Below are positions 293 to 14,290 of a stretch of 14,290 nucleotides of DNA, in pieces. The notes beneath the pieces were generated by a model. That model ran no database searches, was not told where the DNA came from, and saw only the letters and a list, made by a program, of their open reading frames with translations. A program made the translations under genes and the position numbers. This DNA comes from a virus (lineage: Duplodnaviria > Heunggongvirae > Uroviricota > Caudoviricetes), in the IMG/VR virus record IMGVR_UViG_2778261163_000002, positions 1 to 14,290 of that record, one strand, 5' to 3'. Position 1 is the first letter of the stretch. Each line of letters begins with the position of its first letter.

Positions 293-321
293 ACTGATTC
301 CTCGCGGTGTTGCTTCGCTTA

Positions 322-450
322 TCAGCCGTTAGATTTTGCCGAGCTGGAAAGCGCCTGTTTAAACTCACTGAAGCTGAGAGCTTCTTCGCCTTCGGCAAGG
401 CCTTCGAAGTATTCTTCGTAAGCCTTTTCCATGATTGTGTCGAAATCCAT
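322..450 (-). CDS. small acidic protein, 42 aa (MDFDTIMEKAYEEYFEGLAEGEEALSFSEFKQALSSSAKSNG), YdfB-like by size and synteny
   Basis: Hand-translated minus-strand ORF below the 60-aa cutoff of the supplied track; ATG at 450..448 lies 1 nt after the TGA of the upstream gene (TGATATG), with AGGTGG inside the upstream ORF. Confidence 0.45.
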   Translation of the reverse strand: MDFDTIMEKAYEEYFEGLAEGEEALSFSEFKQALSSSAKSNG

Positions 451-451
451 A

Positions 452-607
452 TCACCCACCTGAATTTCTTTCCAGCCAGCGACGCGCTCCAGATTCGGTT
501 TTAAACGTTTTGCTTTTGGTATACGTCATTGCGGTGAACGTACCGTCCTGGTTGGGGAACACGCCACATACCAGAGATTCGCTGTTGCCAAGATTGATAG
601 TATCCAT
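452..607 (-). CDS. small protein, 51 aa from internal ATG (MDTINLGNSESLV...), YdfA-like by size and synteny; ORF extends upstream to 688
   Basis: Minus-strand ORF 452..688; the ATG at 607 is preceded by GAGG with 5-nt spacing and gives 51 aa; the N-terminal extension from 688 looks non-protein-like. Confidence 0.45.
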   Translation of the reverse strand: MDTINLGNSESLVCGVFPNQDGTFTAMTYTKSKTFKTESGARRWLERNSGG

Positions 608-779
608 GCTGACCTCATTTCCCCTTAACGCCGGGGTAGCGGAACAAAAACCTGCTGCATAGTTATTAAAGTTGAACCCTGCCGTCATGTTCTTACGCCT
701 CGGGCTGGCTACTTAACCCCTGACCACTGCCTGGTAACTCGAAGTATTGCCCTGCATTCTGTGGGGCGGGGTGGGTGGC

Positions 780-830
780 AGGTATATAATGTACTTTGCG
801 TTCATTGTTGTAAAGTACTTTTAGTACATT
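780..830 (-). promoter_or_regulatory. candidate promoter/operator for the ydfA-like operon
   Basis: On the minus strand: -35-like TTTACA (complement of 810..815), 17-bp spacer, -10-like CATTAT (complement of 786..791); AATGTACT at 788..795 overlaps the -10 and its reverse complement AGTACATT sits at 823..830. Confidence 0.3.
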
Positions 831-904
831 CTGTGTGTAAAAAAATGAGATGGGATAAAGTGAAGCACAAACCCGGAGGAAGGCGCTACCGGATTTATGC
901 TGGT

Positions 905-1324
905 TTAAGAGGCTTTTTGTTTTTTCTTTCGTGCTAACTCTTCGTAAATTGCATTGTACTTCTGTTTTTTCTCTTCAAGAGTTTTTAAAAGTTCATCTGT
1001 CTCACTGTCAGGGAGCTCGTCCAGAAGGTCAATGATGATTTTTTGTCTTGGATTTAACTCCTGATAGAAACGTACCTGTCCACTTTCTTCTGTATCCTCT
1101 CCCAAAAGATAGGTTGGTGTTGTTCCTATTAGTGTTGCTAATTCCCTTAATTTCTCCCGGCGAGGAATTGTTTCGCCATTAAACCATTTGCTAACCGCTT
1201 TTGGTGTTAATTTCATTCGACGGGCAATTTCTGCCTGCCTTCCATGTTGTTCATAACCAGCGTTTTCACAGGCTAGCGCAAGCCTACTGGCGAACTCTTT
1301 ACGCGCTTTATCTTCATGAACCAT
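905..1324 (-). CDS. XRE-family HTH prophage repressor, DicA/CI-like
   Basis: 139-aa ORF with an N-terminal HTH-like segment (QAEIARRMKLTPKAVSKWFNGE) and an acidic C-terminal region; divergent from the cro-like gene; no Shine-Dalgarno before the ATG, so possibly leaderless. Confidence 0.75.
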   Translation of the reverse strand: MVHEDKARKEFASRLALACENAGYEQHGRQAEIARRMKLTPKAVSKWFNGETIPRREKLRELATLIGTTPTYLLGEDTEESGQVRFYQELNPRQKIIIDLLDELPDSETDELLKTLEEKKQKYNAIYEELARKKKQKAS

Positions 1325-1403
1325 AAGTTCAATGATATTCGCTCTTGAATGTACTGTCAGTTCTGTTATAGCATGTACTCAAAGTTCACATTGTGAGGGT
1401 GAT
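1325..1403. promoter_or_regulatory. immunity-region divergent promoter/operator interval
   Basis: 79-bp gap between divergent repressor and cro-like genes; ATGTACT repeated at 1348..1355 and 1373..1379; inverted repeat TTCAA-N12-TTGAA at about 1328..1349; near-palindrome TCACATTGTGA at 1386..1396. Confidence 0.5.
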
Positions 1404-1658
1404 ATGAACCAGAAAACACTTGAAGATGTAATCAAAACTGTTCGCGTTGCTGTTGTGGCCGACGTTTGTGGTGTCAGCCAAAGAGCAATCTATAAATGGA
1501 TGGATAACGGAAAATTGCCTCGCACAGAATATACCGGCGAAACAAATTACGCTGAAAAAATCGCTCTTGCATCAAACGGATTATTTTCTGCCGATGCAAT
1601 TTTAACTATTGGCAGGAATAAAACTACTACGAAAAAGCTGATGGGAGTTGATTCATGA
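1404..1658 (+). CDS. Cro-like small DNA-binding protein (84 aa)
   Basis: In-frame ATG at 1404 preceded by GAGGGTG with 5-nt spacing; HTH-like segment (VADVCGVSQRAIYKWMDNG); divergent from the repressor; stop overlaps the next start (ATGA). Confidence 0.6.
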   Translation: MNQKTLEDVIKTVRVAVVADVCGVSQRAIYKWMDNGKLPRTEYTGETNYAEKIALASNGLFSADAILTIGRNKTTTKKLMGVDS

Positions 1659-2080
1659 AAATCAAGCATGAACACATCCGCATGGCGATGAATGCCTGGG
1701 CGCATCCGGACGGCGAAAAAGTACCGGCTGCGAAAATTACCAAAGCGTATTTCGAGCTGGGAATGACGTTCCCGGAACTGTATGACGACAGCCATCCGGA
1801 AGCCTTGGCTCGCAATACCCAGAAAATTTTCCGCTGGGTAGAGAAAGACACCCCTGATGCAGTTGAAAAAATTCAGGCGTTGTTACCAGCGATCGAAAAG
1901 GCAATGCCACCTTTGCTGGTGGCCAGAATGCGCAGCCACAGTTCAGCTTATTTTCGGGAGCTGGTGGAGACGCGGGAGCGATTGGTGAGAGACGCTGATG
2001 ATTTTGTCGCAGTGGCAATCGCCGGTTTCAATCAGATGAACCGTGGTGGCCCGGCAGGAAATGCTGTGGCAGTACATTGA
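1655..2080 (+). CDS. YdaT-family protein (CII-like regulator, formerly called a putative toxin)
   Basis: 141-aa ORF starting MKIKHEHI, recalled as the characteristic YdaT N-terminus; position immediately after cro matches racR-ydaS-ydaT synteny. Confidence 0.6.
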   Translation: MKIKHEHIRMAMNAWAHPDGEKVPAAKITKAYFELGMTFPELYDDSHPEALARNTQKIFRWVEKDTPDAVEKIQALLPAIEKAMPPLLVARMRSHSSAYFRELVETRERLVRDADDFVAVAIAGFNQMNRGGPAGNAVAVH

Positions 2081-2151
2081 CTGACAATAGCCATATCGAA
2101 TCGCTTCCGGCAACTCGTGAGTAAAAAGATTCGGTATCAGAAGAGGTGAGT

Positions 2152-3222
2152 ATGGCTAACGCCTGGCTCAGATTATGGCATGACATGCCAAATGACCCTA
2201 AGTGGCGAACAATTGCCAGGGTGTCAGGGCAGCCAATTGCAACAGTGATGGCAGTGTATATCCACCTCCTGGTGAGCGCGTCACGAAATGTCACGCGAGG
2301 TCACATTGATGTCACGACAGAAGATTTGGCAAGTGCGCTCGACGTGACAGAAGAGGTAATTGATTCAATTTTGCAGACGATGCAGGGGCGGGTACTTGAT
2401 GGTGATTTAATCACTGGATGGGAAAAACGCCAGGTGCTTAAAGAGGACAACGGCAATATTTCGCAAACCGCAAAATCTCCTGCAGAGCGCAAGAGGGCGC
2501 AGCGAGAGAGGGAAAGAAAGCAGGAACAAAATGGCGATTGTCACGGCGCGTCACGAAATGTCACGCACATGTCACGACGAGTCACGACAGATAAAGATAC
2601 AGATAAAGATACAGATCAAGAAGATCAAAACACTATGGTCCATGGCGTAAAAAACGCCACGAACCAGGCAGGGGATGTTCAGACCGTCAATCCTGGTCAG
2701 CCAGCAGGCACGACACCGGAAGCCGATTCAGCGTATGCGCTGAAAGCCGATTCGGGCGCTGTGCAGCAGGTGATGACCGCAAGGCCGGAGCAATCACACC
2801 AACTGCAGCAGCCTGAAGCCGATTCCGCCATTCAGCGGGAAGCCGATCGGGTAGTCCCGGAAAACACCGGGCAGCCTGTGGGACGAGTAGATTATCCGGA
2901 TGTGTTCGAACAGGTCTGGCGGGAATACCCGTTGCGTGCTGGGGCAAACCCGAAGAAATCCGCTTTCAGTGCCTGGAAGGCCAGATTACGCGAGGGGGTG
3001 CCACCAGAGGCCATGCTGGATGGTGTGAGGCGTTACGCAAGATACCTGGCGGCTACCGGGAAAACGGGAACGGAATTTGTTCAGCGAGCGACGACGTTTT
3101 TTGGACCGGACCGGAATTTTGAGAACCCTTGGTTGCTCCCGGTAAGCGGCACGAACAACCAGCGTTGTGTGAATCATATTTCTGAACCGGATAACGAAAT
3201 TCCGCCGGGCTTCAGGGGGTAA
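2152..3222 (+). CDS. phage replication initiator / replisome organizer, DUF1376 YdaU-like N-terminal domain
   Basis: ATG at 2152 preceded by AAGAGGTG; N-terminus WLRLWHDMPNDPKWRTIA resembles DUF1376 (recalled); two GTCACG iteron arrays and an acidic DKDTDKDTD linker lie inside the ORF, as with the lambda O gene and its origin. Confidence 0.65.
   Translation: MANAWLRLWHDMPNDPKWRTIARVSGQPIATVMAVYIHLLVSASRNVTRGHIDVTTEDLASALDVTEEVIDSILQTMQGRVLDGDLITGWEKRQVLKEDNGNISQTAKSPAERKRAQRERERKQEQNGDCHGASRNVTHMSRRVTTDKDTDKDTDQEDQNTMVHGVKNATNQAGDVQTVNPGQPAGTTPEADSAYALKADSGAVQQVMTARPEQSHQLQQPEADSAIQREADRVVPENTGQPVGRVDYPDVFEQVWREYPLRAGANPKKSAFSAWKARLREGVPPEAMLDGVRRYARYLAATGKTGTEFVQRATTFFGPDRNFENPWLLPVSGTNNQRCVNHISEPDNEIPPGFRG
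2291..2327. repeat. iteron array A: four direct GTCAC(G/A) repeats at 10/10/11-bp spacing
   Basis: GTCACG at 2291, 2301, 2322 and GTCACA at 2311; an inverted copy CGTGAC at 2354..2359. Confidence 0.7.
2540..2612. repeat. iteron array B (five GTCACG repeats at 10/10/11/10-bp spacing) plus adjacent 12-bp tandem repeat; candidate replication origin
   Basis: GTCACG at 2540, 2550, 2560, 2571, 2581; then AGATAAAGATAC x2 (2589..2612) forming an A-rich stretch; TCACGAAATGTCACG is shared exactly with array A. Confidence 0.7.
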
Positions 3223-3262
3223 GTGTTAATTTCTGGTCATGAGGTAATTTTCAGGAGGGCTT

Positions 3263-3688
3263 GTGGCAAAAGTATTTACACAAGAAGAGCGGGAAAAAAT
3301 TAAGAGGCAGGTTGTTGAACTCGTGCGCCTGAGCGGGCGCGAGACGTTACGACAACTGGAAGCGAAAACAGGTGCGACAAGATATCTGATGAGTGTTCTC
3401 GCCAGAGAGCTGGTTGCCAGTGGCGATGTATACAATTCTGGCTACGGGTTATTCCCGTCTGAACAGGCGCGTAAGGACTGGCAAAATGCCCGCAAAAAAC
3501 TCTCAAGGGCAAAGGTGAAGAAACCTGCAGTGGTTGATCCGGACCTTATCTGGTCGTTACCAGACGGCGAAATACGCCGCTACGACAGGCGCCTGAATAT
3601 AATCTGTCGCGAGTGCCGGAAGAGCGAAGCTATGCAGCGTGTACTGGCATTTTATCAAGGAAATGTTAGGTATTTTAGACGTTACTAG
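3263..3688 (+). CDS. hypothetical protein (141 aa), basic, unknown function
   Basis: GTG start at 3263 preceded by CAGGAGGG; protein-like composition; no family recognised from memory. Confidence 0.55.
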   Translation: MAKVFTQEEREKIKRQVVELVRLSGRETLRQLEAKTGATRYLMSVLARELVASGDVYNSGYGLFPSEQARKDWQNARKKLSRAKVKKPAVVDPDLIWSLPDGEIRRYDRRLNIICRECRKSEAMQRVLAFYQGNVRYFRRY

Positions 3689-3841
3689 ATTAAAGAGCAT
3701 TAGTTCAGATGTGAATTGACATTTTCATGGCGCAGGGTAGAGCCAGCGTGGTTGTCCGCTTTGCGTCAAAACCAGATATTACCAGATTTAGACATATATT
3801 CCCGATAGCCCTGCTCTGATGCTACACTCTGTGCTATTTTC

Positions 3842-4528
3842 ATGACCCCAATAAAAATATTTATGACTATTGCTGATTTCAAACGGCCTAAATTGGAGCT
3901 CCCAAACGGGGCAAACAAACTACTACTGCACTCTTGCTGTGCTCCATGTTCCGGTGAAGTGATGGAGGCGCTTCAGGCCTCGGGAATCGACTACACCATC
4001 TTTTTCTACAACCCGAACATTCATCCTCAGAAAGAGTATTTAATTCGTAAGGATGAAAATATTCGCTTTGCTGAACAACACGGCGTGCCGTTTATCGATG
4101 CTGATTACGACACCGACAACTGGTTTGAACGTGCCAAAGGAATGGAATGGGAGCCTGAGAGGGGGATCCGTTGTACCATGTGTTTTGACATGCGTTTTGA
4201 GCGGACAGCGTTGTACGCTGCTGAAAATGGTTTCAGTGTGATCAGCAGTTCACTGGGCATTTCACGCTGGAAAAATATGCAGCAGGTTAACGAGTGTGGG
4301 CGGCGAGCTGTTGCGCATTATCCGGGTATGGTGTACTGGGATTATAACTGGCGCAAGCAGGGCGGCTCGTCCCGTATGATTGAAATCAGCAAGCGCGAAA
4401 AATTCTATCAGCAGGAATATTGTGGCTGTGTGTATTCTCTGCGCGATACCAATCTACACCGCAAATCTCAGGGACGCCCTCTTATCAAAATTGGCCAACT
4501 CCACTACGGAAAAGAAGAGAAGGAGTGA
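3842..4528 (+). CDS. queH: epoxyqueuosine reductase QueH homolog (DUF208 family)
   Basis: 228-aa ORF with HSCCAPCS near the N-terminus, YNPNIHP, RCxxCF and a C-terminal YCGCVYS motif, recalled as hallmarks of the Fe-S, B12-independent QueH family; start could alternatively be the ATG at 3863. Confidence 0.7.
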
Positions 4529-4765
4529 TTTTATGGATCACCTTTCTGATTGATTTCATATTGGCGAGGTGACGTGAGTTAAGTAGAATGGCTGCGGGTG
4601 CTTGAGGCTATCTGTCTCAGGCATGAACACTGAAAGGCAGATAGAGAAAAGCCCCAGTTAACATTACGCGTCCGGCAAGACGCTTAACATTAATCTGAGG
4701 CTCAATCTATGAACGGCAAATCTAGGTTAGCCTCTTACGTGCCGAAAGGCAAGGAGAAGCAGGCT

Positions 4766-4921
4766 ATGAAGCAGCAAAAGGCGATGTTAATCGCCCTGAT
4801 CGTCATCTGTTTAACCGTCATTGTGACGGCACTGGTAACGAGGAAAGACCTCTGCGAGGTACGAATCCGAACCGGCCAGACGGAGGTCGCTGTCTTCACA
4901 GTCTACGAACCTGAGGAGTAA
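4766..4921 (+). CDS. hokD: Hok/Gef-family type I toxin, HokD (RelF)-like, 51 aa
   Basis: MKQQKAMLIALIVICLTVIVTALVTRKDLCEVRIRTGQTEVAVFTVYEPEE matches the recalled HokD sequence almost exactly; AAGGAG 9 nt upstream; the ORF continues in frame upstream to 4709, which is probably not biological. Confidence 0.8.
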   Translation: MKQQKAMLIALIVICLTVIVTALVTRKDLCEVRIRTGQTEVAVFTVYEPEE

Positions 4922-4991
4922 GAGACTTGGCGAGGGAGAAATCCCTCGCCGCCTCTGATGTGTCAGGCATCCTCAACGCACCCGCACTTAA

Positions 4992-5010
4992 CCCGCTTCG
5001 GCGTTTTTTC
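4992..5010 (+). terminator. rho-independent terminator after hok
   Basis: CCCGC-TTCG-GCG stem-loop followed by TTTTTT. Confidence 0.55.
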
Positions 5011-5064
5011 CGTTGATTAACTCTAGTTATTAGAGAACCGAACTTTTATTGATGGGGCAGGGAG

Positions 5065-5457
5065 ATGAAGAAACTTGTTTTAGTCGCAGGTGTAATGATT
5101 GCAACAGTAATGTTGGGAGGGTGTGCAGCAAAGGTCGATCCAGCGTTGAAAGCAGAAGCAATGAAGCCACTAACATGTAATGATGAAAAGCAATGTGACT
5201 TTTATTGGAAACGAGCGCAATTCTGGTTGGCTAATAATTCCTCATGGAAAATTCAAACGGCGACAGACACGCTAATTTCCACTTATAATCCCTCTCCAAA
5301 TAGTCCATTCCTCGCTTATCAAGTGAGTAAAATGCCAAATGAAGATGGATCCTCAAGAATTTTCATCAAGCCTTTTTGCGATAATATGTTTGGCTGTCAA
5401 CCAAACCCCTATCAGGCAGTTGTTTCCTTTAAAAACTTCGTTAAAACAGGGCAGTAG
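5065..5457 (+). CDS. putative lipoprotein (130 aa), four conserved-looking Cys, unknown function
   Basis: Signal peptide with lipobox LGG-C (MKKLVLVAGVMIATVMLGGC); GGGAG before the ATG; AT-rich codon usage compared with flanking genes; terminators on both sides. Confidence 0.7.
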   Translation: MKKLVLVAGVMIATVMLGGCAAKVDPALKAEAMKPLTCNDEKQCDFYWKRAQFWLANNSSWKIQTATDTLISTYNPSPNSPFLAYQVSKMPNEDGSSRIFIKPFCDNMFGCQPNPYQAVVSFKNFVKTGQ

Positions 5458-5655
5458 TGTATAGCTTGGACGATAAATTATTAGTGAAAACGCCGTAAAC
5501 CCTCACCCAATGTGGACTAAGCCTATCAAACATGACTGTGATGATTAGTCCGTAGTTGTTGCCTATGAAATCTGGATTGAGTCAGGGTTTAATCCAATAA
5601 TTATTCTATCGTTCCTTTACAAGTCCGGTATATTACTTTCAGTTTGTTTTAGCAT

Positions 5656-5681
5656 ACCCGCTTCGGCGGGTTTTGTTTTTT
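5656..5681 (+). terminator. rho-independent terminator
   Basis: CCCGC-TTCG-GCGGG stem-loop followed by TTTTGTTTTTT. Confidence 0.65.
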
Positions 5682-5753
5682 CCTGGCATTCTGGTTTACA
5701 ATTCGCACGCCAGCCTGAACAACTGGCACCTGCTGCGCCAGCAGAGACAACCG

Positions 5754-6032
5754 ATGGCGCACGATACCAAATTACACAATTCTAATGATTCTGCCGTCTT
5801 TGCCAGCAGGCGCGGACGGCGTTTTCACGTATTCAAATCAGACTGGTTCCAGCATCCTCCATGCACTGAAGAGCAGGCGGAATGGATAATTCAGTGTTAC
5901 CGCAGGCGCGGATACGAGGTTAAGAAAGCCCTCAGCCTCGATTATCGTCACTGGATAATCTATGTCAGGCTCCCTTATTCCGAACGCCCACCGCGCCCAT
6001 CCCGCACATACCAGCAACGGATCTGGAGGTAA
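5754..6032 (+). CDS. hypothetical small protein (92 aa from internal ATG), position equivalent to rem in Qin
   Basis: ORF 5673..6032; the upstream part overlaps the terminator, so an internal start is assumed; its stop TAA at 6030 overlaps the GGAGG of the next gene. Start and reality uncertain. Confidence 0.35.
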   Translation: MAHDTKLHNSNDSAVFASRRGRRFHVFKSDWFQHPPCTEEQAEWIIQCYRRRGYEVKKALSLDYRHWIIYVRLPYSERPPRPSRTYQQRIWR

Positions 6033-6033
6033 C

Positions 6034-7089
6034 GTGCGGATATTACTTCGACCTGTTCTGGTACCGGAACTTGGGCTGGTGGTCCTTAGGCCGGGCCGTG
6101 AATCCATGCAAGTATTTCATAACCCTCGAGTGCTGGTGGAGCCTGAACCGAAAAGCATGCGCGGTCTGCCGTCCGGAGTCGTCCCTGCCGTTCGCCAGCC
6201 GCTGGCGGAGGATAAATCATTACTGCCATTTTTCAGCGATGAGCGGGTGATTCGTGCTGCTGGCGGCGCTGGGGCACTGTCTGACTGGCTGTTGCGTCAT
6301 GTCAAATCCTGCCAGTGGCCTCATGGTGACTATCATCACAGTGAAATCGTCATACATCGTTACGGTACCGGCGCGATGGTGTTGTGCTGGCACTGCGACA
6401 ACCAGTTGCGTGACCAGACATCCGAATCACTCGGGCAACTTGCTCATCAAAACCTGTCAGCATGGATGATTGACGTCATACGCCATGCAATGAATGGCAC
6501 GCAGGAGCGGGAATTGTCGCTGGCTGAATTATCCTGGTGGGCGGTCTGCAATCAGGTGGCGGACGCGCTTCCGGAGGCAGTATTACGTCGTTCTCTGGGG
6601 TTACGTGCGGAAAAAATCCGCTCCTTGTACCGCGAAAGCGACATCGTACCGGGAGAGCAGACCGCCACCAGCATACTGAAGCAGCGCACAAAAAATCTTG
6701 CGCCGTTGCCTCATGCCCACCAGCAAAACCCGCCACAGGAAAAGACGGTGGTCAGCATTGCCGTTGATCCGGAGTCACCGGCTCAGTATCTCCAGCGCCA
6801 GAAACCACAACGGGAAGAGATGCCTGTATACACGCGTTGGGTAAAAACGCAGAAATGCATGACGTGCGGTAATCAGGCAGATGATCCGCATCACATCATT
6901 GGTCATGGACTGGGAGGGATGGGAACAAAGGCTGATGATTTGTTTGTTATTCCGCTGTGCCGTAAATGTCATAACGAACTGCACGCCGGGGTAAAAGATT
7001 TTGAAGAAAAACACGGCAGCCAGCTGTTGTTGCTGATTCGTTTTTTAATGCACGCGAGAAATTCGGGTGTCCTGAAGTGGAAAGCATGA
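6034..7089 (+). CDS. DUF968-family protein, YdfU-like, with C-terminal HNH-like Cys/His motif
   Basis: GTG at 6034 preceded by GGAGGT; C-terminus CMTCG...DDPHHIIGHGLGG...CRKCHNELH; the ORF is open upstream to 5962, so the start is uncertain; sits between hok and rusA/Q as in Qin. Confidence 0.65.
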   Translation: MRILLRPVLVPELGLVVLRPGRESMQVFHNPRVLVEPEPKSMRGLPSGVVPAVRQPLAEDKSLLPFFSDERVIRAAGGAGALSDWLLRHVKSCQWPHGDYHHSEIVIHRYGTGAMVLCWHCDNQLRDQTSESLGQLAHQNLSAWMIDVIRHAMNGTQERELSLAELSWWAVCNQVADALPEAVLRRSLGLRAEKIRSLYRESDIVPGEQTATSILKQRTKNLAPLPHAHQQNPPQEKTVVSIAVDPESPAQYLQRQKPQREEMPVYTRWVKTQKCMTCGNQADDPHHIIGHGLGGMGTKADDLFVIPLCRKCHNELHAGVKDFEEKHGSQLLLLIRFLMHARNSGVLKWKA

Positions 7090-7455
7090 ATGACTGAACG
7101 CATAGAATTTGTTTTGCCTTACCCGCCGACGGTGAATACCTACTGGCGACGTCATGGCAATACGTATTTCATCTCGGAGGCCGGAAAGCGTTATCGCCAT
7201 GATGTGGCGCTAATTGTTCGCCAGCAGCGGTTGAAATTAAACCTGTCCGGAAGGCTGGCGATAAAGATTATTGCAGAGCCACCGGATAAGCGCCGTCGTG
7301 ACCTGGACAATATCCTGAAAGCACCACTGGATGCGCTGACGCATGCCGGACTACTCATAGATGACGAGCAGTTTGATGAAATCAATATTGTGCGCGGTCA
7401 GCTCGTTCCTGGTGGGCGGCTGGGGATAAAAATCACAGAACTGGAGTGCGCATGA
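7090..7455 (+). CDS. rusA: RusA Holliday-junction resolvase
   Basis: 121-aa protein with the RRRDLDN motif and overall similarity to recalled RusA; typical nin-region position upstream of Q. Confidence 0.85.
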   Translation: MTERIEFVLPYPPTVNTYWRRHGNTYFISEAGKRYRHDVALIVRQQRLKLNLSGRLAIKIIAEPPDKRRRDLDNILKAPLDALTHAGLLIDDEQFDEINIVRGQLVPGGRLGIKITELECA

Positions 7456-8141
7456 ATAACCAGTATTTACAGTTTGTGCGTGAGCAGCTCATTATCGCCA
7501 CCGCTGATTTGAGTGGGGCAACAAAAGGTCAGCTTGAAGCCTGGCAGGAGAATGCCATGTTCGATACAGGGCGTTACAGGCGTAAAAAAATCCGGTACCG
7601 AGATGAAGTGACCGGAAAAATGATTACGCGGGATAATCCACCAATCCCGGGGAAACAATCGCTGGCGAAGGGGACGTCAATTCCTCTGGTCAGTCCGGTT
7701 GAGTTTTCGACATCATCGTGGCGGCGGGCTGTTCTGTCTCTTGAAGAACATCATAAAGCCTGGTTGTTGTGGTGTTACAGCGGGAGTATTTGTTGGGAAT
7801 ATCAGATCGCGATAACACAGTGGGCGTGGAATGAATTTAATACTCAATCCGGTACCAGAAAAATTGCAGGGAAAACGCAGGAACGCCTGAAAAAATTAAT
7901 CTGGCTGGCGGCGCAGGCATTAAAAGCAGAACTTTTTGGTGGGGAAGGTTATGAATACCAGGAGCTGGCATTACTGGCGGGAGTGACAACTAAAAACTGG
8001 TCCAAAACATTTACTCGTCACTGGGTTGCAATGAAACACATTTTTCACCGACTTGATAGTGAGGCTTTATTGTTTGTAATGAGAACACGTTCAAAACAAA
8101 AGGCGGCATTTTCAAAGCAAAGTGTTGCAAAAGTAGATTGA
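7452..8141 (+). CDS. late-gene antiterminator Q-like protein (QuuQ-type), 229 aa
   Basis: Start ATG overlaps the rusA stop (ATGA); located directly upstream of a promoter/terminator pair, the tRNAs and the lysis genes; no lambda-Q zinc-finger motif, so the call is mainly positional. Confidence 0.55.
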   Translation: MNNQYLQFVREQLIIATADLSGATKGQLEAWQENAMFDTGRYRRKKIRYRDEVTGKMITRDNPPIPGKQSLAKGTSIPLVSPVEFSTSSWRRAVLSLEEHHKAWLLWCYSGSICWEYQIAITQWAWNEFNTQSGTRKIAGKTQERLKKLIWLAAQALKAELFGGEGYEYQELALLAGVTTKNWSKTFTRHWVAMKHIFHRLDSEALLFVMRTRSKQKAAFSKQSVAKVD

Positions 8142-8153
8142 AAGGCATATATT
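8125..8153 (+). promoter_or_regulatory. pR'-like late promoter
   Basis: -35 TTGCAA (8125..8130), 17-bp spacer, -10 TATATT (8148..8153), overlapping the 3' end of the Q-like gene; a terminator lies about 55 nt downstream. Confidence 0.45.
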
Positions 8154-8204
8154 TCATGCAAATCTGATATTTTGCCGATTTTGTACGTGATGGCAAAAGC
8201 AAAC

Positions 8205-8230
8205 AAAACCCGCCCACAAGCGGGTTTTTT
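8205..8230 (+). terminator. tR'-like rho-independent terminator
   Basis: AAAACCCGC-CCACAA-GCGGGTTTT stem-loop followed by a T-run. Confidence 0.65.
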
Positions 8231-8297
8231 GTGCCACTTATCTCGGATAGACATGGTGAATGCGCTGGTGGAGGAGATAAGGGTGATTTTTGAATGC

Positions 8298-8326
8298 TTG
8301 CAACATTGATTTCGTAACGTTATTAT
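8298..8326 (+). promoter_or_regulatory. candidate sigma70 promoter for the tRNA cluster
   Basis: -35 TTGCAA (8298..8303), 17-bp spacer, -10 TATTAT (8321..8326); predicted start about 8333, just before the first tRNA at 8336. Confidence 0.5.
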
Positions 8327-8335
8327 CCTGCGCCC

Positions 8336-8411
8336 GGCCCTTTAGCTCAGTGGTGAGAGCGAGCGACTCATAATCGCCAGGTCGCTGGTTCAAATCCAGC
8401 AAGGGCCACCA
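8336..8411 (+). tRNA. tRNA with anticodon CAT, closest to tRNA-Ile2 (lysidine, ileX/ileZ-like); Met not excluded
   Basis: Cloverleaf folded by hand: acceptor GGCCCTT/AAGGGCC, D arm GCTC/GAGC, anticodon loop CTCATAA, T loop TTCAAAT, encoded CCA; close to recalled E. coli ileX. Confidence 0.8.
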
Positions 8412-8412
8412 G

Positions 8413-8489
8413 CCGCCACTAGCTCATCAGGAAAGAGCGTCAACCCTTTAAGTTGAGTGTGCGAGGTTCGAGTCCCCGATGGCGGTCCA
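8413..8489 (+). tRNA. tRNA-like gene with aberrant features, anticodon loop CCTTTAA (UUU, Lys-like); possible pseudo-tRNA
   Basis: D arm GCTC/GAGC, anticodon stem TCAAC/GTTGA, T loop TTCGAGT, encoded CCA; but C at position 33 instead of the invariant U, a mismatch in the T stem and a mismatch at acceptor pair 7-66. Confidence 0.5.
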
Positions 8490-8491
8490 GT

Positions 8492-8567
<76 letters not shown>

Positions 8568-8570
8568 TAT

Positions 8571-8645
<75 letters not shown>

Positions 8646-8651
8646 GTTAGA

Positions 8652-8697
8652 GTCTTTCAGTCTGCGATGATGGGAAATCCCGGAGTGACTGAAAGAC
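8652..8697. repeat. perfect 11-bp inverted repeat (GTCTTTCAGTC / GACTGAAAGAC) with 24-nt loop
   Basis: Arms at 8652..8662 and 8687..8697 are exact reverse complements; located immediately after the tRNA-Gly gene. Confidence 0.7.
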
Positions 8698-8705
8698 GTT
8701 TAAGT

Positions 8706-8776
8706 TATGAATGATCGCTTTTTTTTGCAAAATTGCTGTGCAGAAATACTAACCTTCGGGCAGGCGATCATTCATA
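8706..8776. repeat. perfect 13-bp inverted repeat (TATGAATGATCGC / GCGATCATTCATA) flanking a 45-bp core
   Basis: Arms at 8706..8718 and 8764..8776; a T9 run follows the left arm. Confidence 0.7.
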
Positions 8777-8852
8777 AGCACTCTGCTTTTATTCCGATTA
8801 ACTGTGGGTGGTTTGTTGGATAGAGTGCTTTCCTTACTGTATATATTGTTTC

Positions 8853-8877
8853 GCCCGCTTTTGCGGGCTTTTCTTTT
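8853..8877 (+). terminator. rho-independent terminator upstream of the holin gene
   Basis: GCCCGC-TTTT-GCGGGC stem-loop followed by TTTTCTTTT. Confidence 0.65.
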
Positions 8878-8937
8878 CAAATCCCTTTCATTTCTCAGTG
8901 TAAAACTACGCCATCCGTTATTTGCGGAGGTGAGGCT

Positions 8938-9153
8938 ATGAAATCCATGGACAAAATTTCAACGGGCATTGCCTATGGCACCTCCGCAGGCAGTGCTGGC
9001 TACTGGTTTTTACAGTGGCTTGATCAGGTCAGTCCGTCACAGTGGGCTGCGATTGGTGTGCTGGGGAGTCTGGTTCTGGGCTTCCTGACTTATCTGACAA
9101 ATCTGTACTTCAAAATCAGAGAAGACAAGCGTAAGGCTGCACGGGGAGAGTAA
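8938..9153 (+). CDS. class II holin / pinholin, phage-21 S-like, dual-start motif MKSM
   Basis: 71-aa protein matching the recalled S21 pinholin; GGAGGTGAGG before the ATG; Met1/Met4 dual start typical of antiholin/holin pairs. Confidence 0.85.
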
Positions 9154-9157
9154 TTCA

Positions 9158-9508
9158 ATGACTCAAAACTATGAACTGATTGTGAAAGGGATCCGCAATT
9201 TTGAGAATAAAGTTACGGTAACTTTAGCGTTACGGGACAAAAAACGCTTTGACGGTGAAATTTTTGACCTGGACATCTCGCTGGACCGTGTTGAAGGTGC
9301 CGCGCTGGAGTTTTATGAGGCAGCAGCCAGAATGAGCATCAGACAGGTCTTCCTGGATGTTGCTGCCGGGTTATGTGAAGGGGATGAGCAGTCGCCGGAA
9401 AAGCGCCCCGTAATTTTAGAGGCGCAGAATGTATGGATAACCTACAAAGGAAAGCTACCGGGAAGAATTACTGGTTCTCTGAAGACTCCTCCGGAATCAC
9501 AACCTTAA
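9158..9508 (+). CDS. hypothetical protein (116 aa) inserted between holin and endolysin
   Basis: ATG 4 nt after the holin stop, GGAGAG 7 nt upstream; no TM segment or signal peptide evident; no family recognised. Confidence 0.55.
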   Translation: MTQNYELIVKGIRNFENKVTVTLALRDKKRFDGEIFDLDISLDRVEGAALEFYEAAARMSIRQVFLDVAAGLCEGDEQSPEKRPVILEAQNVWITYKGKLPGRITGSLKTPPESQP

Positions 9509-9571
9509 GTCACTGACCGGAACAGATAAACCTGTCCGTGGGCAGAAACCGATAAATCCTGATAAATATCC

Positions 9572-10105
9572 ATGAACGCAAAAATCAGATACGGCCTGTC
9601 GGCTGCCGTTCTGGCACTGATTGCCGTCGGTGCGCCCGCGCCTGATATTCTCGACCAGTTTCTGGATGAAAAAGAAGGTAACCACACAACGGCATACCGC
9701 GATGGGTCCGGCATCTGGACCATCTGTCGGGGTGCCACGATGGTGGATGGAAAACCCGTTTTTCCCGGTATGAAACTGTCGAAGGAAAAATGCGACCAGG
9801 TCAACGCCATTGAGCGTGATAAGGCGCTGGCATGGGTGGAGCGCAATATTAAAGTACCACTGACCGAACCACAAAAAGCGGGTATAGCGTCATTCTGTCC
9901 CTATAACATTGGCCCCGGTAAGTGTTTCCCGTCGACGTTTTATAAGCGGCTGAATGCCGGTGATCGTAAGGGCGCATGCGAGGCGATTCGCTGGTGGATA
10001 AAAGATGGTGGGCGCGATTGCCGCATACGTTCAAATAACTGCTATGGACAGGTTATTCGTCGTGACCAGGAAAGCGCATTAGCCTGTTGGGGGATAGAGC
10101 AGTGA
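9572..10105 (+). CDS. SAR endolysin (phage lysozyme, R21-like)
   Basis: N-terminal signal-anchor-release segment [18 protein letters not shown]; overall similarity to recalled phage-21 R; stop overlaps the Rz start. Confidence 0.8.
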
Positions 10106-10563
10106 GCAGAGTCGCCGCGATTATTTATGCTTTGGTTATCTGCATCATCGTCTGCCTGTCGTGGGCGGTCAATCATTACCGTGATAACGCCATCGCCTAC
10201 AAAGAACAGCGTGATAAAAAAGTCAGTGAGCTGAAGCAGGCGATCGCCACCATCGCTGACATGCAACAGCGTCAGCGTGATGTTGCTGCACTCGATGCAA
10301 AGTACTCGAGAGAATTAGCCAATGCGAAAGCTGAAAATGAAACTCTGCGCGCTGATGTTGCCGCTGGTCGTCGTCGGTTGCACATCAAAGCAGTCTGTCA
10401 GTCAGTGCGTGAAGCCACCACCGCCTCCGGCGTGGATAATGCAACCAGCCCCCGACTGGCAGACACCGCTGAACGGGATTATTTCACCCTCAGAGAGAGG
10501 CTGATCACTATGCAAAAACAACTGGAAGGAACCCAGAAGTATATTAATGAGCAGTGCAGATAG
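10102..10563 (+). CDS. Rz: Rz i-spanin
   Basis: GTG start giving MSRVAAII..., near-identical to recalled lambda Rz; N-terminal TM segment; C-terminus ...QKYINEQCR. Confidence 0.85.
10322..10504 (+). CDS. Rz1: Rz1 o-spanin lipoprotein, embedded in Rz in the +1 frame
   Basis: 60-aa ORF with lipobox VVGC and a PPPPP run, near-identical to recalled lambda Rz1. Confidence 0.85.
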
Positions 10564-10594
10564 AGCTGCCCATATCGATGGGCAACTCATGCAA

Positions 10595-10888
10595 TTATTG
10601 TGAGCAATACACACGCGCTTCCAGTGGAGTATAAATGCCTAAAGTAATAAAACCGAGAAATCCATTTACGAATGTTTGCTGGGTTTCTGTTTTAACAACA
10701 TTTTCTGCGCCGCCACAAATTTTGGCTGCATCAACAGTTTTCTCCTGTCCAATTCCCGAAACGAAGAAATGATGGGTGATGGTTTCCTTTGGTGTTACTG
10801 CTGTCGGTTTGTTTCCAACAGTAAACGTCTGTTGAGCACATCCTGTAATAAGCATTGCCAGAGCGGCAGAAAACAACATTTTTTTCAT
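10595..10888 (-). CDS. bor: Bor lipoprotein (serum-resistance, Iss family)
   Basis: 97 aa from MKKML...ITGCAQQTFTV...LEARVYCSQ, near-identical to recalled lambda Bor; start taken at the internal ATG (10888), preceded by AGGA. Confidence 0.85.
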   Translation of the reverse strand: MKKMLFSAALAMLITGCAQQTFTVGNKPTAVTPKETITHHFFVSGIGQEKTVDAAKICGGAENVVKTETQQTFVNGFLGFITLGIYTPLEARVYCSQ

Positions 10889-11068
10889 CTTATTATCCTG
10901 CATTGTTAAAAACGGCAGAATCCTATGTGACAACAATTAAACGATAGTTAAATGGATTGATGAAAATTAAAACTATATAGGTGGATGCTCAGCCTATTGG
11001 AGGTAGTCAGGATTTGAATGTCAGTCTGTTGTCGGCATTCTGGCAATGCAATTTGGATAAAGCGGGGA

Positions 11069-11191
11069 TTAAAAAGATAGAGGCGAGCCGGTCAGGTAGA
11101 AATGAATCAGGCTCAAAGTGAAGCGGAAAAGGTCTGTGGCACAAGCTGATGCAGCCATAATTACAGCCTGATGATTTGTGGAATGAAACAT
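11069..11191 (-). CDS. small ORF, 40 aa (MFHSTNHQAVIMAASACATDLFRFTLSLIHFYLTGSPLSF), hypothetical
   Basis: Hand-translated; AAGGAGGT Shine-Dalgarno 6 nt upstream of the ATG on the minus strand; below the ORF-track cutoff. Confidence 0.35.
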   Translation of the reverse strand: MFHSTNHQAVIMAASACATDLFRFTLSLIHFYLTGSPLSF

Positions 11192-11413
11192 GTTGAACCT
11201 CCTTAATTGATGTTATTCGAGTGATGAAGGCATTCTGTCCTTCTATAGTGTCCAGTAAATCAAACAGGAAACTTGTCCAACGTGTTGGACAAGCCTCTCC
11301 ATTAGTGAGTTGTATTGATCACAACTCTACAAAGAATTCATTACTGGGTAGATGAAAATAGTTTCACTATGAATGGAGGAGGCTATGTCGGTGGCTTCTT
11401 CATTGGAGTACAT

Positions 11414-11764
11414 ATGCCCCCACGAATCCCACGCGCCTGCCGTAAGCGTGGATGTGCAGGTACAACCACAGACAGTTCTGGTTACTGCGATAAACATCGT
11501 GGCGAAGGATGGGTACAGCATCAACGCGGACTGAGCCGCCACCAGCGTGGCTATGGCTCGAAATGGGATGCCATACGTGCGCGCATACTGAAGCGTGATA
11601 ATCATCTGTGTCAGAACTGCCTGCGCAATGGGAGAGCCGTTGAAGCCAGAACTGTGGACCACATCATTCCGAAAGCTCATGGTGGCACGGATGCAGACAG
11701 TAACCTGCAGAGTCTGTGCTGGCCCTGTCATAAAGCAAAAACAGCGCGCGAACGCATCAATTGA
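11414..11764 (+). CDS. HNH endonuclease (packaging-associated)
   Basis: Cys/His motif CQNCL...VDHIIPKAHGG...NLQSLCWPCHKAK; GGAG 5 nt before the ATG at 11414; the ORF is open upstream to 11315 (alternative ATG at 11369); located just upstream of the terminase genes as in HK97-like phages. Confidence 0.75.
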   Translation: MPPRIPRACRKRGCAGTTTDSSGYCDKHRGEGWVQHQRGLSRHQRGYGSKWDAIRARILKRDNHLCQNCLRNGRAVEARTVDHIIPKAHGGTDADSNLQSLCWPCHKAKTARERIN

Positions 11765-11911
11765 TAACAGTTCCCATCTGTAGGGGAGGGGCAGGTCAAA
11801 TCTCTGCAACCCTGGCTGCTCAGTACCGCCGCCTGACCTTTCCTCGCATCGCCGCAGGTTCGAAAACTTTTTTTTGGAATGTGATTAAATGATTGATAGG
11901 TAAAACCGATT

Positions 11912-12394
11912 ATGTCTGGACCCCCGAAAACCCCGCCACGCCTGCATTTGATACGAGGTAACCCCTCAAAGCGGCCAGTTAAAGACTCCAAAAAAACCGC
12001 TAAAAAGGATGAAAAAGGTCTCCCTAAAATTCCGCAACATTTAGGGGCGCAGGGGAAGTACTGGTTCAGGCGAATGGCGGAAGAGCTGAATGCGGAAGGG
12101 ATCATTTCTCAGCTCGATGCACGTGCGCTCGAGTTACTGGTGGAAGCCTACACCGAATACCGGCATCACTGCGAAATACTCGATGTTGAGGGTTATACCT
12201 ACCGCACGGAAACGCAGAATGGCGATGTGCTGATCAAGGCACACCCGGCTGCTGCGATGAAGGCTGATGCCTGGAAGCGGATTCGGGCGATGCTTGCAGA
12301 GTTTGGTATGTCACCGGCAAGCCGGGCGAAAGTAAATACCGCCGGACCGGATGATGTTGATCCGCTGGCAGAGCTTTTAAAAGCGAGAGACTGA
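11912..12394 (+). CDS. terminase small subunit (P27-family-like)
   Basis: 160-aa basic protein directly upstream of and overlapping the large terminase gene (TGATG); recalled similarity to P27-family small terminases. Confidence 0.7.
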   Translation: MSGPPKTPPRLHLIRGNPSKRPVKDSKKTAKKDEKGLPKIPQHLGAQGKYWFRRMAEELNAEGIISQLDARALELLVEAYTEYRHHCEILDVEGYTYRTETQNGDVLIKAHPAAAMKADAWKRIRAMLAEFGMSPASRAKVNTAGPDDVDPLAELLKARD

Positions 12395-14151
12395 TGGCAA
12401 AAGTGGCTGACGGGATCCGCTACGCCGAACGTGTTGTTGCAGGAGAAATTGTTGCTGGCGAATTTGTCCGTCTGGCCTGCCAGCGTTTTCTTGATGATCT
12501 GAAGTACGGCGAAGAGCGGGGGATTTATTTCAGTGAACCTCGTGCACAGCACATCCTTAATTTCTACAAATTTGTACCCCATGTGAAAGGGGCGCTGGCA
12601 GGTCAGCCCATTGAGTTGATGGACTGGCATGTGTTTATCCTCATTAATATTTTTGGTTTTGTCATTCCGCTGGTGAATGAAGAAACCGGGGAAGTTGTCA
12701 TGCGCAGCGATGGCAGTGGACGCCCGGTGATGGTGCGCCGGTTCCGGACAGCATACAACGAAGTTGCCCGTAAAAACGCAAAATCAACCCTGTCATCGGG
12801 TATCGGTCTGTATATGACGGGGGCAGATGGTGAAGGCGGGGCTGAGGTGTATTCAGCCGCAACCACGCGTGACCAGGCCAGAATTGTGTTTGAAGACGCC
12901 AAAAATATGGTCAGAAAAGCCCGGTCGACACTCGGGCGGTTGTTTGATTTCAACAAGCTGGCGATTTACCAGGAGCAGAGCGCATCAAAATTTGAACCGC
13001 TTTCCTCGGATGCAAACAACCTGGACGGTCTGAACATCCACTGCGCCATTATTGATGAGCTGCATGCTCATAAAACCCGTGACGTGTGGGACGTTCTGGA
13101 AACGGCAACCGGTGCCCGTCTGCAGTCTCTGTTATTTGGCATCACCACGGCTGGCTTTAACAAGGAAGGGATTTGCTACGAGCAGCGCGATTACGCCATT
13201 AAGGTATTGCGAGGCTATAACAGCGACGTGGAGGGCGCGGTAAAAGACGACTCCTACTTTGCGATCATTTACACGCTCGATGAGGGAGATGATCCGTTTG
13301 ATGAAACGGTCTGGCAGAAAGCGAATCCTGGCCTGGGCATCTGTAAACGCTGGGATGATCTGCGTCGTCTGGCGAAAAAAGCGAAGGAGCAGGTCTCTGC
13401 GCGGGTGAATTTTTTTACCAAACACATGAATGTGTGGGTCACTGCCGAATCTGCCTGGATGGATATGATTAAGTGGGAGAAGTGCGAATACATTGCTCCA
13501 CAACATGAGCTGAAAACATATCCCATGTGGGTCGGCGTAGACCTTGCTCATAAGATTGATATCTGTGCGGCGGCAAAACTCTGGCGAACCGATAACGGAC
13601 ATGTTCATGCTGATTTTAAATTCTGGCTTCCGGAAGGACGGCTGGAGCGATGCTCGCGGCAGCAGGCAGAACTTTACCGGAAGTGGGCGGAGATGGATAA
13701 GCTCATCCTGACGGATGGTGATGTTATCGATCATGCTCAGATAAAAAGTGACTTACTGGAATGGATTGGCGGTGAAAACCTCAGGGAACTGGGATTTGAC
13801 CCGTGGAGCGCAATGCAGTTCAGCCTGGCACTGGCTGAAGAAGGGATACCGCTGGTGGAGGTTCCGCAGACGGTCCGCAATCTGTCAGAGGCCATGAAGG
13901 AAACGGAATCACTGGTTTATGCCGGGCGTTTCCATCACAGCAATCATCCGGTCATGAACTGGATGATGTCTAACGTTACGGTAAAACCGGACAAAAACGA
14001 CAACATCTTCCCGAATAAATCCACGCCTGAAGCCAAAATCGACGGCCCTGTTGCGCTTTTTACGGCCATGAGCCGCTTTCTGGTAAATGGCGGGGGCGTG
14101 AATGACTTTCTGTCCACGCTTGATCCTGATGAGGACCTGTTAATTCTGTGA
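12394..14151 (+). CDS. terminase large subunit (HK97-like family)
   Basis: 585-aa ORF coupled to the small subunit; size and position typical of large terminases; Walker-like and nuclease motifs not individually verified. Confidence 0.8.
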   Translation: MAKVADGIRYAERVVAGEIVAGEFVRLACQRFLDDLKYGEERGIYFSEPRAQHILNFYKFVPHVKGALAGQPIELMDWHVFILINIFGFVIPLVNEETGEVVMRSDGSGRPVMVRRFRTAYNEVARKNAKSTLSSGIGLYMTGADGEGGAEVYSAATTRDQARIVFEDAKNMVRKARSTLGRLFDFNKLAIYQEQSASKFEPLSSDANNLDGLNIHCAIIDELHAHKTRDVWDVLETATGARLQSLLFGITTAGFNKEGICYEQRDYAIKVLRGYNSDVEGAVKDDSYFAIIYTLDEGDDPFDETVWQKANPGLGICKRWDDLRRLAKKAKEQVSARVNFFTKHMNVWVTAESAWMDMIKWEKCEYIAPQHELKTYPMWVGVDLAHKIDICAAAKLWRTDNGHVHADFKFWLPEGRLERCSRQQAELYRKWAEMDKLILTDGDVIDHAQIKSDLLEWIGGENLRELGFDPWSAMQFSLALAEEGIPLVEVPQTVRNLSEAMKETESLVYAGRFHHSNHPVMNWMMSNVTVKPDKNDNIFPNKSTPEAKIDGPVALFTAMSRFLVNGGGVNDFLSTLDPDEDLLIL

Positions 14152-14290
14152 AACAGCTTATTACCTAGATTCTACGTCAGTACTTCAAAAAGCATAATCA
14201 AAGCCTTGATAAATATGCATTCCTTCGAAATTCAGCTTTCACCCATTGGGTGAAAGAAAAGTGCTCAAAAATATGTTAAATTATCAGCTT

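Follow-up and report, generated by a model that had tools for sequence, protein, structure and literature searches.

A probable structured non-coding RNA between the tRNA genes and the holin gene of a lambdoid Escherichia coli prophage

Inverted repeats between the last tRNA gene and the holin gene

The 14,290-nucleotide (nt) stretch of viral DNA analysed here (positions 1 to 14,290 of IMG/VR record IMGVR_UViG_2778261163_000002, hereafter the window) covers the region for late regulation and lysis of an E. coli prophage of lambdoid (Qin or phage 21-like) type. Its genes are arranged in the order hok/sok, DUF968, RusA, the antiterminator Q, four transfer RNA (tRNA) genes, an interval of 292 bases (8646-8937), a holin gene, DUF1327, lysozyme and Rz, with the genes for the small and large terminase subunits at the 3' side. 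RefSeq and GenBank relatives carry the same annotation as the window and leave the interval blank. The subject of this work is an element within this interval. We consider with high confidence that positions 8646-8830 specify, on the plus strand, a non-coding RNA of about 185 nt with a conserved structure of three hairpins, designated H1, H2 and H3.

Three perfect inverted repeats are found in the interval. The first has arms of 11 bp at 8652-8662 and 8687-8697 separated by 24 nt, exactly as given in the initial annotation of this DNA. The second has arms at 8705-8718 and 8764-8777; the 45-nt core was correctly given there, whereas the arms measure 14 bp instead of 13 bp, and the T run in the core, listed as T9, is T8 in the window copy (8719-8726) and ranges from T6 to T9 among relatives. 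The third repeat, which had escaped notice, has 9-bp arms at 8776-8784 and 8822-8830 with 37 nt between them. That such repeats are unlikely to arise by chance is borne out by 2000 dinucleotide-preserving shuffles of the 292 interval bases: perfect repeats of 11 bp or longer arose in 0.35% of them, and neither a repeat of 14 bp or longer nor three repeats of 9 bp or longer arose in any. When folded as plus-strand RNA, the interval reaches -83.1 kcal/mol (z = -6.6), with none of 200 shuffles as stable, and the fold consists of exactly the three repeat hairpins and a terminator. The minus-strand fold, at -65.0 kcal/mol, is 18 kcal/mol worse.

This intrinsic terminator (8853-8878, plus strand), already recognised in the initial annotation, has a stem of six G-C pairs (GCCCGC/GCGGGC, 8853-8868) with a 4-nt loop, followed by TTTTCTTTT. 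It ends 60 nt before the ATG of the holin gene at 8938, and these last 60 nt of the interval (8879-8937) are holin leader only. An intrinsic terminator is also present 60-90 nt 5' of the class II holin gene in two unrelated prophages, DLP12 of strain K-12 (locus L148, about 3760-3800) and a prophage of strain E2348/69 (locus L149, about 4140-4180). A terminator before the holin gene therefore appears to be general to this junction.

The absence of a gene in the interval, as first noted, is essentially right. No conserved open reading frame (ORF) was found in the ORF list, in the alignment of 27 sequences described below or with Pfam, and two mechanical ORFs of 43 and 45 amino acids (aa) overlap the interval. 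The 43-aa ORF, on the minus strand with a TTG start (8749-8880), overlaps H2, H3 and the terminator, and the annotation of phage vB_EcoS-689R5 (ON470583) lists it as a hypothetical protein. Since Pfam gives no match to it and 1-nt indels between clades disrupt the frame, this ORF is probably spurious.

Conserved fold, strand and distribution of the element

To describe the fold, 27 distinct full-length versions of the element were aligned (alignment 1). The closing stems of the RNAalifold consensus are both repeats listed initially plus the third one, and additional inner helices are predicted. In this consensus, which was derived from the same sequences on which it is scored, standard pairs occupy 97.5% of the cells (59 pairs, 27 sequences), versus 39-48% when the 3' partners are slid by one to three columns. 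Compensatory changes, i.e. changes on both sides of a pair, are found at 11 of the 59 pairs. The covariation score, calculated like the other covariation statistics without correction for phylogeny, is 0.226 versus 0.155 for shuffled alignments, and in 500 shuffles neither this score nor the count of doubly changed cells was reached. The fold was reproduced by a second alignment, of 34 H2-H3 sequences including members devoid of H1, with compensatory changes at 7 of 40 pairs. Folding and covariation across related prophages, the check suggested in the initial annotation, thus point to a conserved fold, and the repeats are conserved in relatives.

The strand is indicated by the one-sided changes. 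Read on the plus strand, these give 202 G-U cells (over 28 pairs) versus 17 A-C cells, which argues for an RNA read from the plus strand and against a palindrome acting at the DNA level. A minus-strand RNA and a product of the 43-aa ORF were both considered and rejected, given the weaker fold, the G-U/A-C ratio, the frame-breaking indels and the lack of a Pfam match. The small RNA (sRNA) or regulatory RNA element offered among the first suggestions points in the right direction: the plus-strand RNA stems, the compensatory changes and the G-U bias agree with it.

H1 (8652-8697, plus strand) is built on the perfect 11-bp repeat. It comprises an outer stem of 11-13 bp, an asymmetric internal loop GAUGA/GA, a 4-bp inner stem UGGG/CCCG and a variable apical loop; two pairs show compensatory changes, and a third changes from A-U to G-U. 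Both strands of the internal loop are invariant or nearly so in the 27 sequences, and locus L121 has GAAGA/GA instead. We infer that this loop may form a kink-turn, as its sequence fits the consensus: a C-G closing pair, the bulge GAU, G-A and A-G opposite GA, and then U-G. H1 also shares the string GATGATG with the variable region of the glycine tRNA (tRNA-Gly). An origin of the hairpins as decayed tRNA copies was rejected, however, since local alignment of each hairpin with each tRNA scored no better than shuffles (p = 0.22-1.0).

H2 (8705-8777, plus strand) is a three-way junction closed by a stem of 14-15 bp that contains the perfect 14-bp repeat, with compensatory changes at five closing-stem pairs and an inner stem that is 100% paired. 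Its first arm pairs UUUUUGCA with UGCAGAAA, the T run pairing with GCAGAAA, and carries an invariant 9-nt loop, AAAUUGCUG. The second arm is a short CC-UUCG-GG hairpin, which is longer in the HK639 clade. The H2 loop contains TTGCAA; inspection of both strands found no conserved -10 sequence after it that would make it a promoter, and the promoter scan did not flag it. H3 (8778-8830, plus strand), which includes the perfect 9-bp repeat, has a basal stem of 8-9 bp with compensatory changes at four pairs, and two short upper stems. Its 3' side, the G/U-rich 14-mer GGGUGGUUUGUUGG, is almost invariant; the 5' partner varies and pairing is preserved through G-U pairs. At least five versions of the basal stem are found (ACUCU/AGAGU, AUCUC/GAGGU or GAGAU, ACUCC/GGAGU, ACCUU/AAGGU and AUUUC/AAGGU), with a sixth in an isolated copy of H3. 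The A/U-rich linker that follows (8831-8852) is unpaired in the minimum-energy fold and differs in sequence between clades. In both alignments the loop sequences are better conserved than the stems, which points to sequence-specific contacts.

The isolated copy of H3 lies in locus L121 (5555-5635), where it was found with a covariance model of H2 and H3 (model R1), about 1 kb upstream of a unit made of H1, H2 and the terminator without H3. This copy shares the invariant GGGGUGGUUUGUUGG and differs in its stem, which is compensated; the gene content of the locus looks only partly lambdoid. In the window, model R1 gives a single match (8698-8833, 146.8 bits).

The element is widespread. Of 5426 complete E. 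coli genomes, 518 contain the interval at 95-100% identity and 530 at any identity, always in the chromosome and at up to five places per genome, with a median of one. Among 50,697 phage records, six were matched (blastn, distant mode), none of them from a Shiga toxin (Stx) phage; the element is present in four near-identical sequenced coliphages and in phage HK639 (77% identity). A relation with the flanks of the stx genes was rejected because only these phages, and no Stx phage, were returned by that search. The first description of the interval as lying where Stx phages carry stx holds only as synteny, i.e. as the moron site between Q or the tRNA genes and the holin gene. A scan of IMG/VR with a 16-mer from the H2 loop retrieved about 90 true loci. 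A scan of GTDB, one genome per species, with a degenerate pattern of 20 bases found E. coli, Shigella flexneri, Enterobacter hormaechei, Citrobacter sedlakii, Yokenella regensburgei and Phytobacter ursingii, besides some 14 further hits in unrelated phyla that are evident chance matches. The family occurs in lambdoid prophages of the genera Escherichia, Shigella, Enterobacter, Citrobacter, Yokenella and Phytobacter. After de-duplication 66 distinct versions remained: 40 with H1, H2 and H3, 12 with H1 and H2, 12 with H2 and H3 and two with H2 alone, some of the versions scored as having no H3 being misses of the regular expression on a G-to-A variant. Each prophage has a single copy in a constant late-region context, never dispersed.

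The tRNA operon and the possible role of the RNA

The element is tied to the 3' end of a tRNA array, a link absent from the initial annotation, as were the third hairpin and the closing of a tRNA operon with its own promoter by the terminator. Four tRNA genes lie at 8336-8645 on the plus strand, with anticodons CAT, TTT (Lys), TGT (Thr) and TCC (Gly), as found by ARAGORN and by the Rfam tRNA model (37.7-73.8 bits). The CAT tRNA is called Met by ARAGORN and Ile in the annotation of RefSeq relatives (Met/Ile2). Six bases separate the CCA of tRNA-Gly from H1. In 59 of the 66 distinct versions, CGCTCCA, which is the 3' end of tRNA-Gly(UCC), is found a few bases upstream of the element. In versions without H1 (loci L020, L029, L031, L047 and L144), H2 directly abuts the CCA, and in L121 the element lies 3' of tRNA-Met instead. 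The linkage persists where the tRNA itself has decayed: HK639, L124, L125 and L127 retain the T arm and the 3' strand of the acceptor before H1. The part kept there is the 3' third of tRNA-Gly ending in CGCTCCA (2940-2994 in HK639), and its retention suggests either selection on the junction or a recent decay of the array.

The general pattern of the array is Met/Ile2(CAU), a variable tRNA, Thr(UGU), optionally Arg, and Gly(UCC). The second tRNA of the window (8413-8489) is Lys-UUU, with a weak tRNA score of 37.7 bits. Its counterparts at loci L008, L020, L023, L031, L046, L107 and L115 have a hypervariable anticodon (Phe-AAA, Phe-GAA, a 'stop' UUA or a loop that ARAGORN could not assign), surrounded by constant Met/Ile2, Thr and Gly tRNAs. 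Suppressor tRNAs, or an escape from anticodon nucleases, might account for this variability.

A promoter-like site (8298-8326, plus strand; TTGCAA-17-TATTAT, 9 of 12 consensus positions), followed by a GC-rich discriminator, lies some 8 nt ahead of the first tRNA gene. The same sigma-70-type layout, TTGCAx, 17 bp, TATyAT and a GC-rich discriminator, is kept in 11 loci (the window and 10 others) whose spacers are divergent. At the other end, the terminator has the same position after H3 across clades with a clade-specific sequence: GCCCGC-UUUU-GCGGGC in the window, CCUCGC-UUCG-GCGAGG in HK639 and GGCUGCC-AUAU-GGCGGCC in L008. Its 3' arm forms an allelic series among about 55 related loci (GCGGGC in 22, GCGGGT in 13, GCGGTT in 13 and GCGTTT in three), in which a shorter stem goes with a longer T tract, and the 71-aa holin is intact in nearly all copies. 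The element is found with at least four different Q proteins and with several unrelated lysis cassettes. The tRNA linkage, the promoter-like site, the terminator and the varied Q and lysis partners together indicate a self-contained unit inserted between the late promoter and terminator pR'/tR' and the holin gene. This unit of tRNA genes and element is absent from Stx phages and from DLP12. As an extra unit with a terminator and a predicted promoter of its own, lying between conserved genes and variably present, it has the properties of a 'moron' (Juhala et al. 2000, cited in PMC4104026).

On the basis of the conserved structure and its strand, of the tie to the 3' end of a tRNA and of the promoter and terminator sequences, we propose the following. 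The element could be the 3' trailer of a tRNA operon that belongs to the prophage itself, freed as a stable non-coding RNA that acts in trans, a reading to which we give about an even chance; that the trailer accumulates as a discrete RNA is somewhat more probable. By position it is such a trailer: in 59 of the 66 members it lies 3' of the last tRNA, on the same strand and before the terminator. In the lysogen, the operon would be transcribed from its own sigma-70 promoter and would end at the terminator before the holin gene. During lytic growth, Q-modified polymerase starting at pR' would read through tR', the tRNA genes, the element and the terminator into the lysis genes. Endonucleolytic 3' maturation of tRNA-Gly, six bases upstream of H1, would then free a trailer of about 200-230 nt, the stability of which would be favoured by H1 at the 5' end and by the terminator hairpin at the 3' end. 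Two sequences that are invariant and exposed, the H2 loop AAAUUGCUG and GGGUGGUUUGUUGG of H3, are the likely surfaces through which such an RNA would contact an RNA or protein of the host or the phage. No site complementary to either invariant loop was found in the 14-kb window that could be a phage-internal target.

Several points weigh against this proposal. Transcription, the processed 5' end, stability and action in trans are all deduced from sequence. HK639 and L125 have no recognisable tRNA promoter, tRNA-Asn directly following tR', so that there the RNA would come only from pR'. Many copies with an intact holin have an eroded terminator stem, and tight termination is therefore not essential. 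Much of the compensatory signal separates two main clades, so that the cell counts overstate the number of independent events; H3 nonetheless exists in at least five stem versions. The hairpins occur in differing combinations and could be three independent small elements. Finally, the consensus fold has the conserved 'seed-like' sequences in part base-paired, a feature uncommon among classical Hfq-dependent sRNAs.

It is possible, though rather doubtful, that the hairpins represent a new functional RNA class attached by phages to their tRNA arrays, a compact fold of kink-turn arm, three-way junction and G/U-rich hairpin that would bind a host factor. This factor could be a ribonuclease, an RNA chaperone or a defence nuclease that targets tRNAs. 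Such an RNA would be distinct from an ordinary base-pairing sRNA and, if it exists, would help the prophage or its tRNAs to work in the lysogen or during lytic growth.

Instead of acting in trans, the element could be a cis-acting part of the late transcript. After excision of the tRNAs by RNase P and RNase E from the Q-antiterminated pR' transcript, it would form the 5' end of the mRNA for the lysis and structural genes and act there as a stabiliser against 5'-end-dependent RNase E decay or provide RNase III processing sites, and no separate functional RNA would arise. It is co-oriented with the late operon and immediately upstream of it; H1, only 6 nt after the CCA, would be at the very 5' end once processing has occurred; the long stems with internal loops resemble RNase III substrates; and the lack of a separate tRNA promoter in HK639 and L125 is in line with this view. 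Yet in most clades an intrinsic terminator stands between the element and the lysis genes, the cassettes that follow are unrelated, other RNA modules can intervene (STnc100 in HK639), and the isolated H3 of L121 is far from any lysis gene start. Moreover, a 5' hairpin is sufficient for protection, which leaves the near-invariant loops of H2 and H3 unexplained. We regard a cis-acting stabiliser as unlikely.

A classical Hfq-dependent sRNA is likewise improbable. It would act by base pairing through the seed GGGUGGUUUGUUGG with C/A-rich sites in host mRNAs, for instance those of phage receptors or transporters, and the lysogen would benefit. The R1 region of GcvB is a G/U-rich seed of this kind, and here the G/U-rich 14-mer is invariant while its pairing partner is variable. 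The U-tailed terminator after an A/U-rich linker would suit Hfq, and other sRNAs from between Q and the holin gene are Hfq-bound (AgvB and AsxR, PMC4104026; the Pas sRNAs, PMC8550237), STnc100 being in addition a neighbour of the element. However, about 200 nt of heavily structured RNA is atypical for the class, the 14-mer is largely paired in the consensus fold, and a complementary site is lacking within the window.

A riboswitch or attenuator appears very unlikely. The element would then be a leader that senses a ligand or a factor, and its fold would gate the terminator at 8853-8878 and hence the extension of transcription from the tRNA promoter into the genes for holin and endolysin. The succession of a structured RNA, an intrinsic terminator and genes is the usual layout of such devices. 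Kink-turn-like loops, as proposed for H1, occur in several riboswitch classes. However, the linker and the terminator differ between clades, and inspection revealed no conserved alternative pairing between H3 and the 5' arm of the terminator. Loci L047, L073 and L144 have no terminator after H3, HK639 has a further sRNA module and two more terminators before its lysis genes, and these genes are already controlled by Q antitermination. A role at the DNA level, as a cargo scar or boundary, a miniature transposable element or palindromic protein-binding sites, can be dismissed with near certainty: the repeats are long and perfect in the window copy and the site is a known hotspot for insertion of cargo genes (PMC4104026), but the arms co-vary as RNA helices with the G-T over A-C asymmetry expected for RNA (202 versus 17 cells), the element occurs once per prophage in a fixed context and is not dispersed, Stx phages do not have it, and the sequence between the arms is conserved and is not variable cargo. 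The scar of a lost cargo cassette, one of the initial suggestions, falls with it. A miniature transposable element or insertion scar was also rejected on copy number, with one copy in the window and a median of one place per genome, and on the conservation between the arms.

Neighbouring features and comparison with known RNAs

Other features of the window provide the context of the element. The Q gene (7446-8141; PF06323, E = 2.4e-91) is overlapped at its end by a pR'-like late promoter (8125-8153, plus strand), a consensus match TTGCAA-17-TATATT, and a predicted tR'-like hairpin with a T6 run follows at 8205-8234 (plus strand; AAAACCCGC-CCACAA-GCGGGTTTTTTG). These two sites would yield an RNA of about 70 nt, like the lambda 6S RNA, StxS and PasD. 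Rfam isrK (22.7 bits) and isrJ (24.5 bits) both match 8157-8230 below threshold, and isrJ reaches 34.6 bits at the equivalent pR'-tR' position of HK639, versus a gathering score of 37. The counterpart of StxS-type RNAs is the pR'-tR' transcript, about 8157-8234, and not the hairpin element.

Downstream, the gene at 8938-9153 (plus strand) encodes a P21-type class II holin of 71 aa (PF04971, E = 1.4e-35). It begins with MKSMDK, two Met codons three codons apart, like the dual-start motif described for the phage 21 holin. The 5' leader of this gene (8879-8937, plus strand) has the Shine-Dalgarno sequence GGAGG at 8926-8930 and may form a small hairpin: in a fold of 8905-8947, GCCAUCCG pairs with CGGAGGU and would mask the Shine-Dalgarno sequence, with a z of -1.2 that is not significant alone. 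In the early-right region of the prophage, a match to the sok antitoxin RNA (4596-4771, 111.9 bits) adjoins a hokD-type toxin gene, according to the annotation of the E. coli 042 relative, the two forming a type I toxin-antitoxin pair.

At gathering level, a scan of the whole window with Rfam 15 returned only sok and the four tRNAs. The interval 8646-8937 has no match at gathering score and, even at E = 10, nothing is listed within 8657-8830. Sub-threshold matches on the terminator region (8831-8876) are to RyhB, anti-hemB and CRISPR-DR28 (E = 0.66-5.3). The divergent members HK639, L020, L128 and L121 gave no Rfam match to the element either, with sub-threshold istR-like matches on H3 and the terminator (E = 0.24-0.42). 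Six diagnostic strings of the element had no exact occurrence in about 8 million full texts, and literature searches on HK639 and on prophage tRNA-spacer sRNAs yielded no description of it.

About one in ten complete E. coli genomes carries this element, which is everywhere unannotated or mis-annotated as a 43-aa hypothetical protein. Phage tRNA arrays are of current interest as a means to counter codon bias and tRNA-cleaving defence systems, and a conserved RNA joined to the end of such an array is an obvious candidate accessory. Its defined structure with specific invariant loops makes it directly mutable.

The gap between Q and the holin gene is a recognised moron site, in which prophages of enterohaemorrhagic (EHEC) and enteropathogenic (EPEC) E. 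coli carry stx and several sRNAs (PMC4104026; PMC8550237). To these toxins and regulatory sRNAs of pathogenic strains, the element adds an RNA that is on the sense strand, linked to tRNA genes and more structured. AgvB and AsxR of EHEC lambdoid prophages are anti-sRNAs of 51-60 nt, AsxR being antisense to stx2AB (PMC4104026). Like the element they occupy the moron site between Q/pR' and the lysis genes, and by description they differ in being short, with a 5' seed and an arrangement in convergent sRNA pairs. Nothing named AgvB or AsxR appeared in the Rfam scans up to E = 10, though it is unconfirmed that Rfam holds these families. PasA and PasC of EPEC, of about 80 nt, are antisense to the late operon and adjacent to a sialate esterase gene, and PasA is processed from a longer transcript (PMC8550237; bioRxiv 10.64898/2026.05.13.724894). 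Like the element they lie immediately upstream of the holin-lysozyme operon of lambdoid prophages, but on the strand opposite to the late operon, whereas the element is on the holin strand. In the E2348/69 PP2 region between Q and the holin gene, which contains PasA and PasD2 (PasC is in PP5, outside this comparison), blastn with word size 7 gave a best E of 0.8 and model R1 had no match in L149. Similarly, the quuD-essD region of DLP12, including the nmpC-essD spacer, gave no significant blastn match and no R1 match in L148. Identity with PasA, PasD2 or RNAs of the DLP12 region was therefore rejected, neither blastn nor the covariance model revealing similarity.

The STnc100/PasD/StxS group (Rfam RF02076; PMC7547250) consists of sRNA modules, StxS being a short pR'-tR' RNA. 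Such modules are likewise found in the interval between Q and the lysis genes, each with its own terminator, but STnc100 differs from the element in sequence and structure, is a module of its own and is absent from the window according to the Rfam scan. The Hfq-binding STnc100 scores above the gathering threshold next to the element in HK639 (3254-3459), directly after the terminator of the element, and in L121 (6455-6567), before tRNA-Met. The gap between Q and the lysis genes can thus hold serial RNA modules, each with its own terminator; in HK639 four terminators are annotated there.

In the way it would be made, the element is most closely likened, by description, to 3'ETS-leuZ and to the stable RNAs of the T4 tRNA cluster. 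3'ETS-leuZ is the trailer of the chromosomal glyW-cysT-leuZ operon of E. coli, about 50 nt long and little structured, which sponges RyhB and RybB. The element would resemble it in lying directly after the last tRNA, in being co-transcribed up to the operon terminator and in depending on tRNA 3' processing, and differs in being phage-borne, about 185 nt long and folded into three conserved hairpins. The T4 tRNA cluster specifies rnaC and rnaD ('species 1 and 2'), stable RNAs co-transcribed and co-processed with the tRNA array; these would be comparable as phage-encoded RNAs tied to a phage tRNA array, T4 being a virulent phage. Small RNAs located between the dual terminators of ribosomal RNA operons are another analogue (PMC8144298). 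GOLLD and ROOL, phage RNAs of 400-800 nt found mostly in Firmicutes and other phyla and often near tRNA genes, are likewise ornate structured prophage RNAs, but they are larger and their Rfam models do not match here. The element is thus an uncatalogued and widespread RNA family of a kind already known, the non-coding RNAs of moron sites and tRNA-operon trailers.

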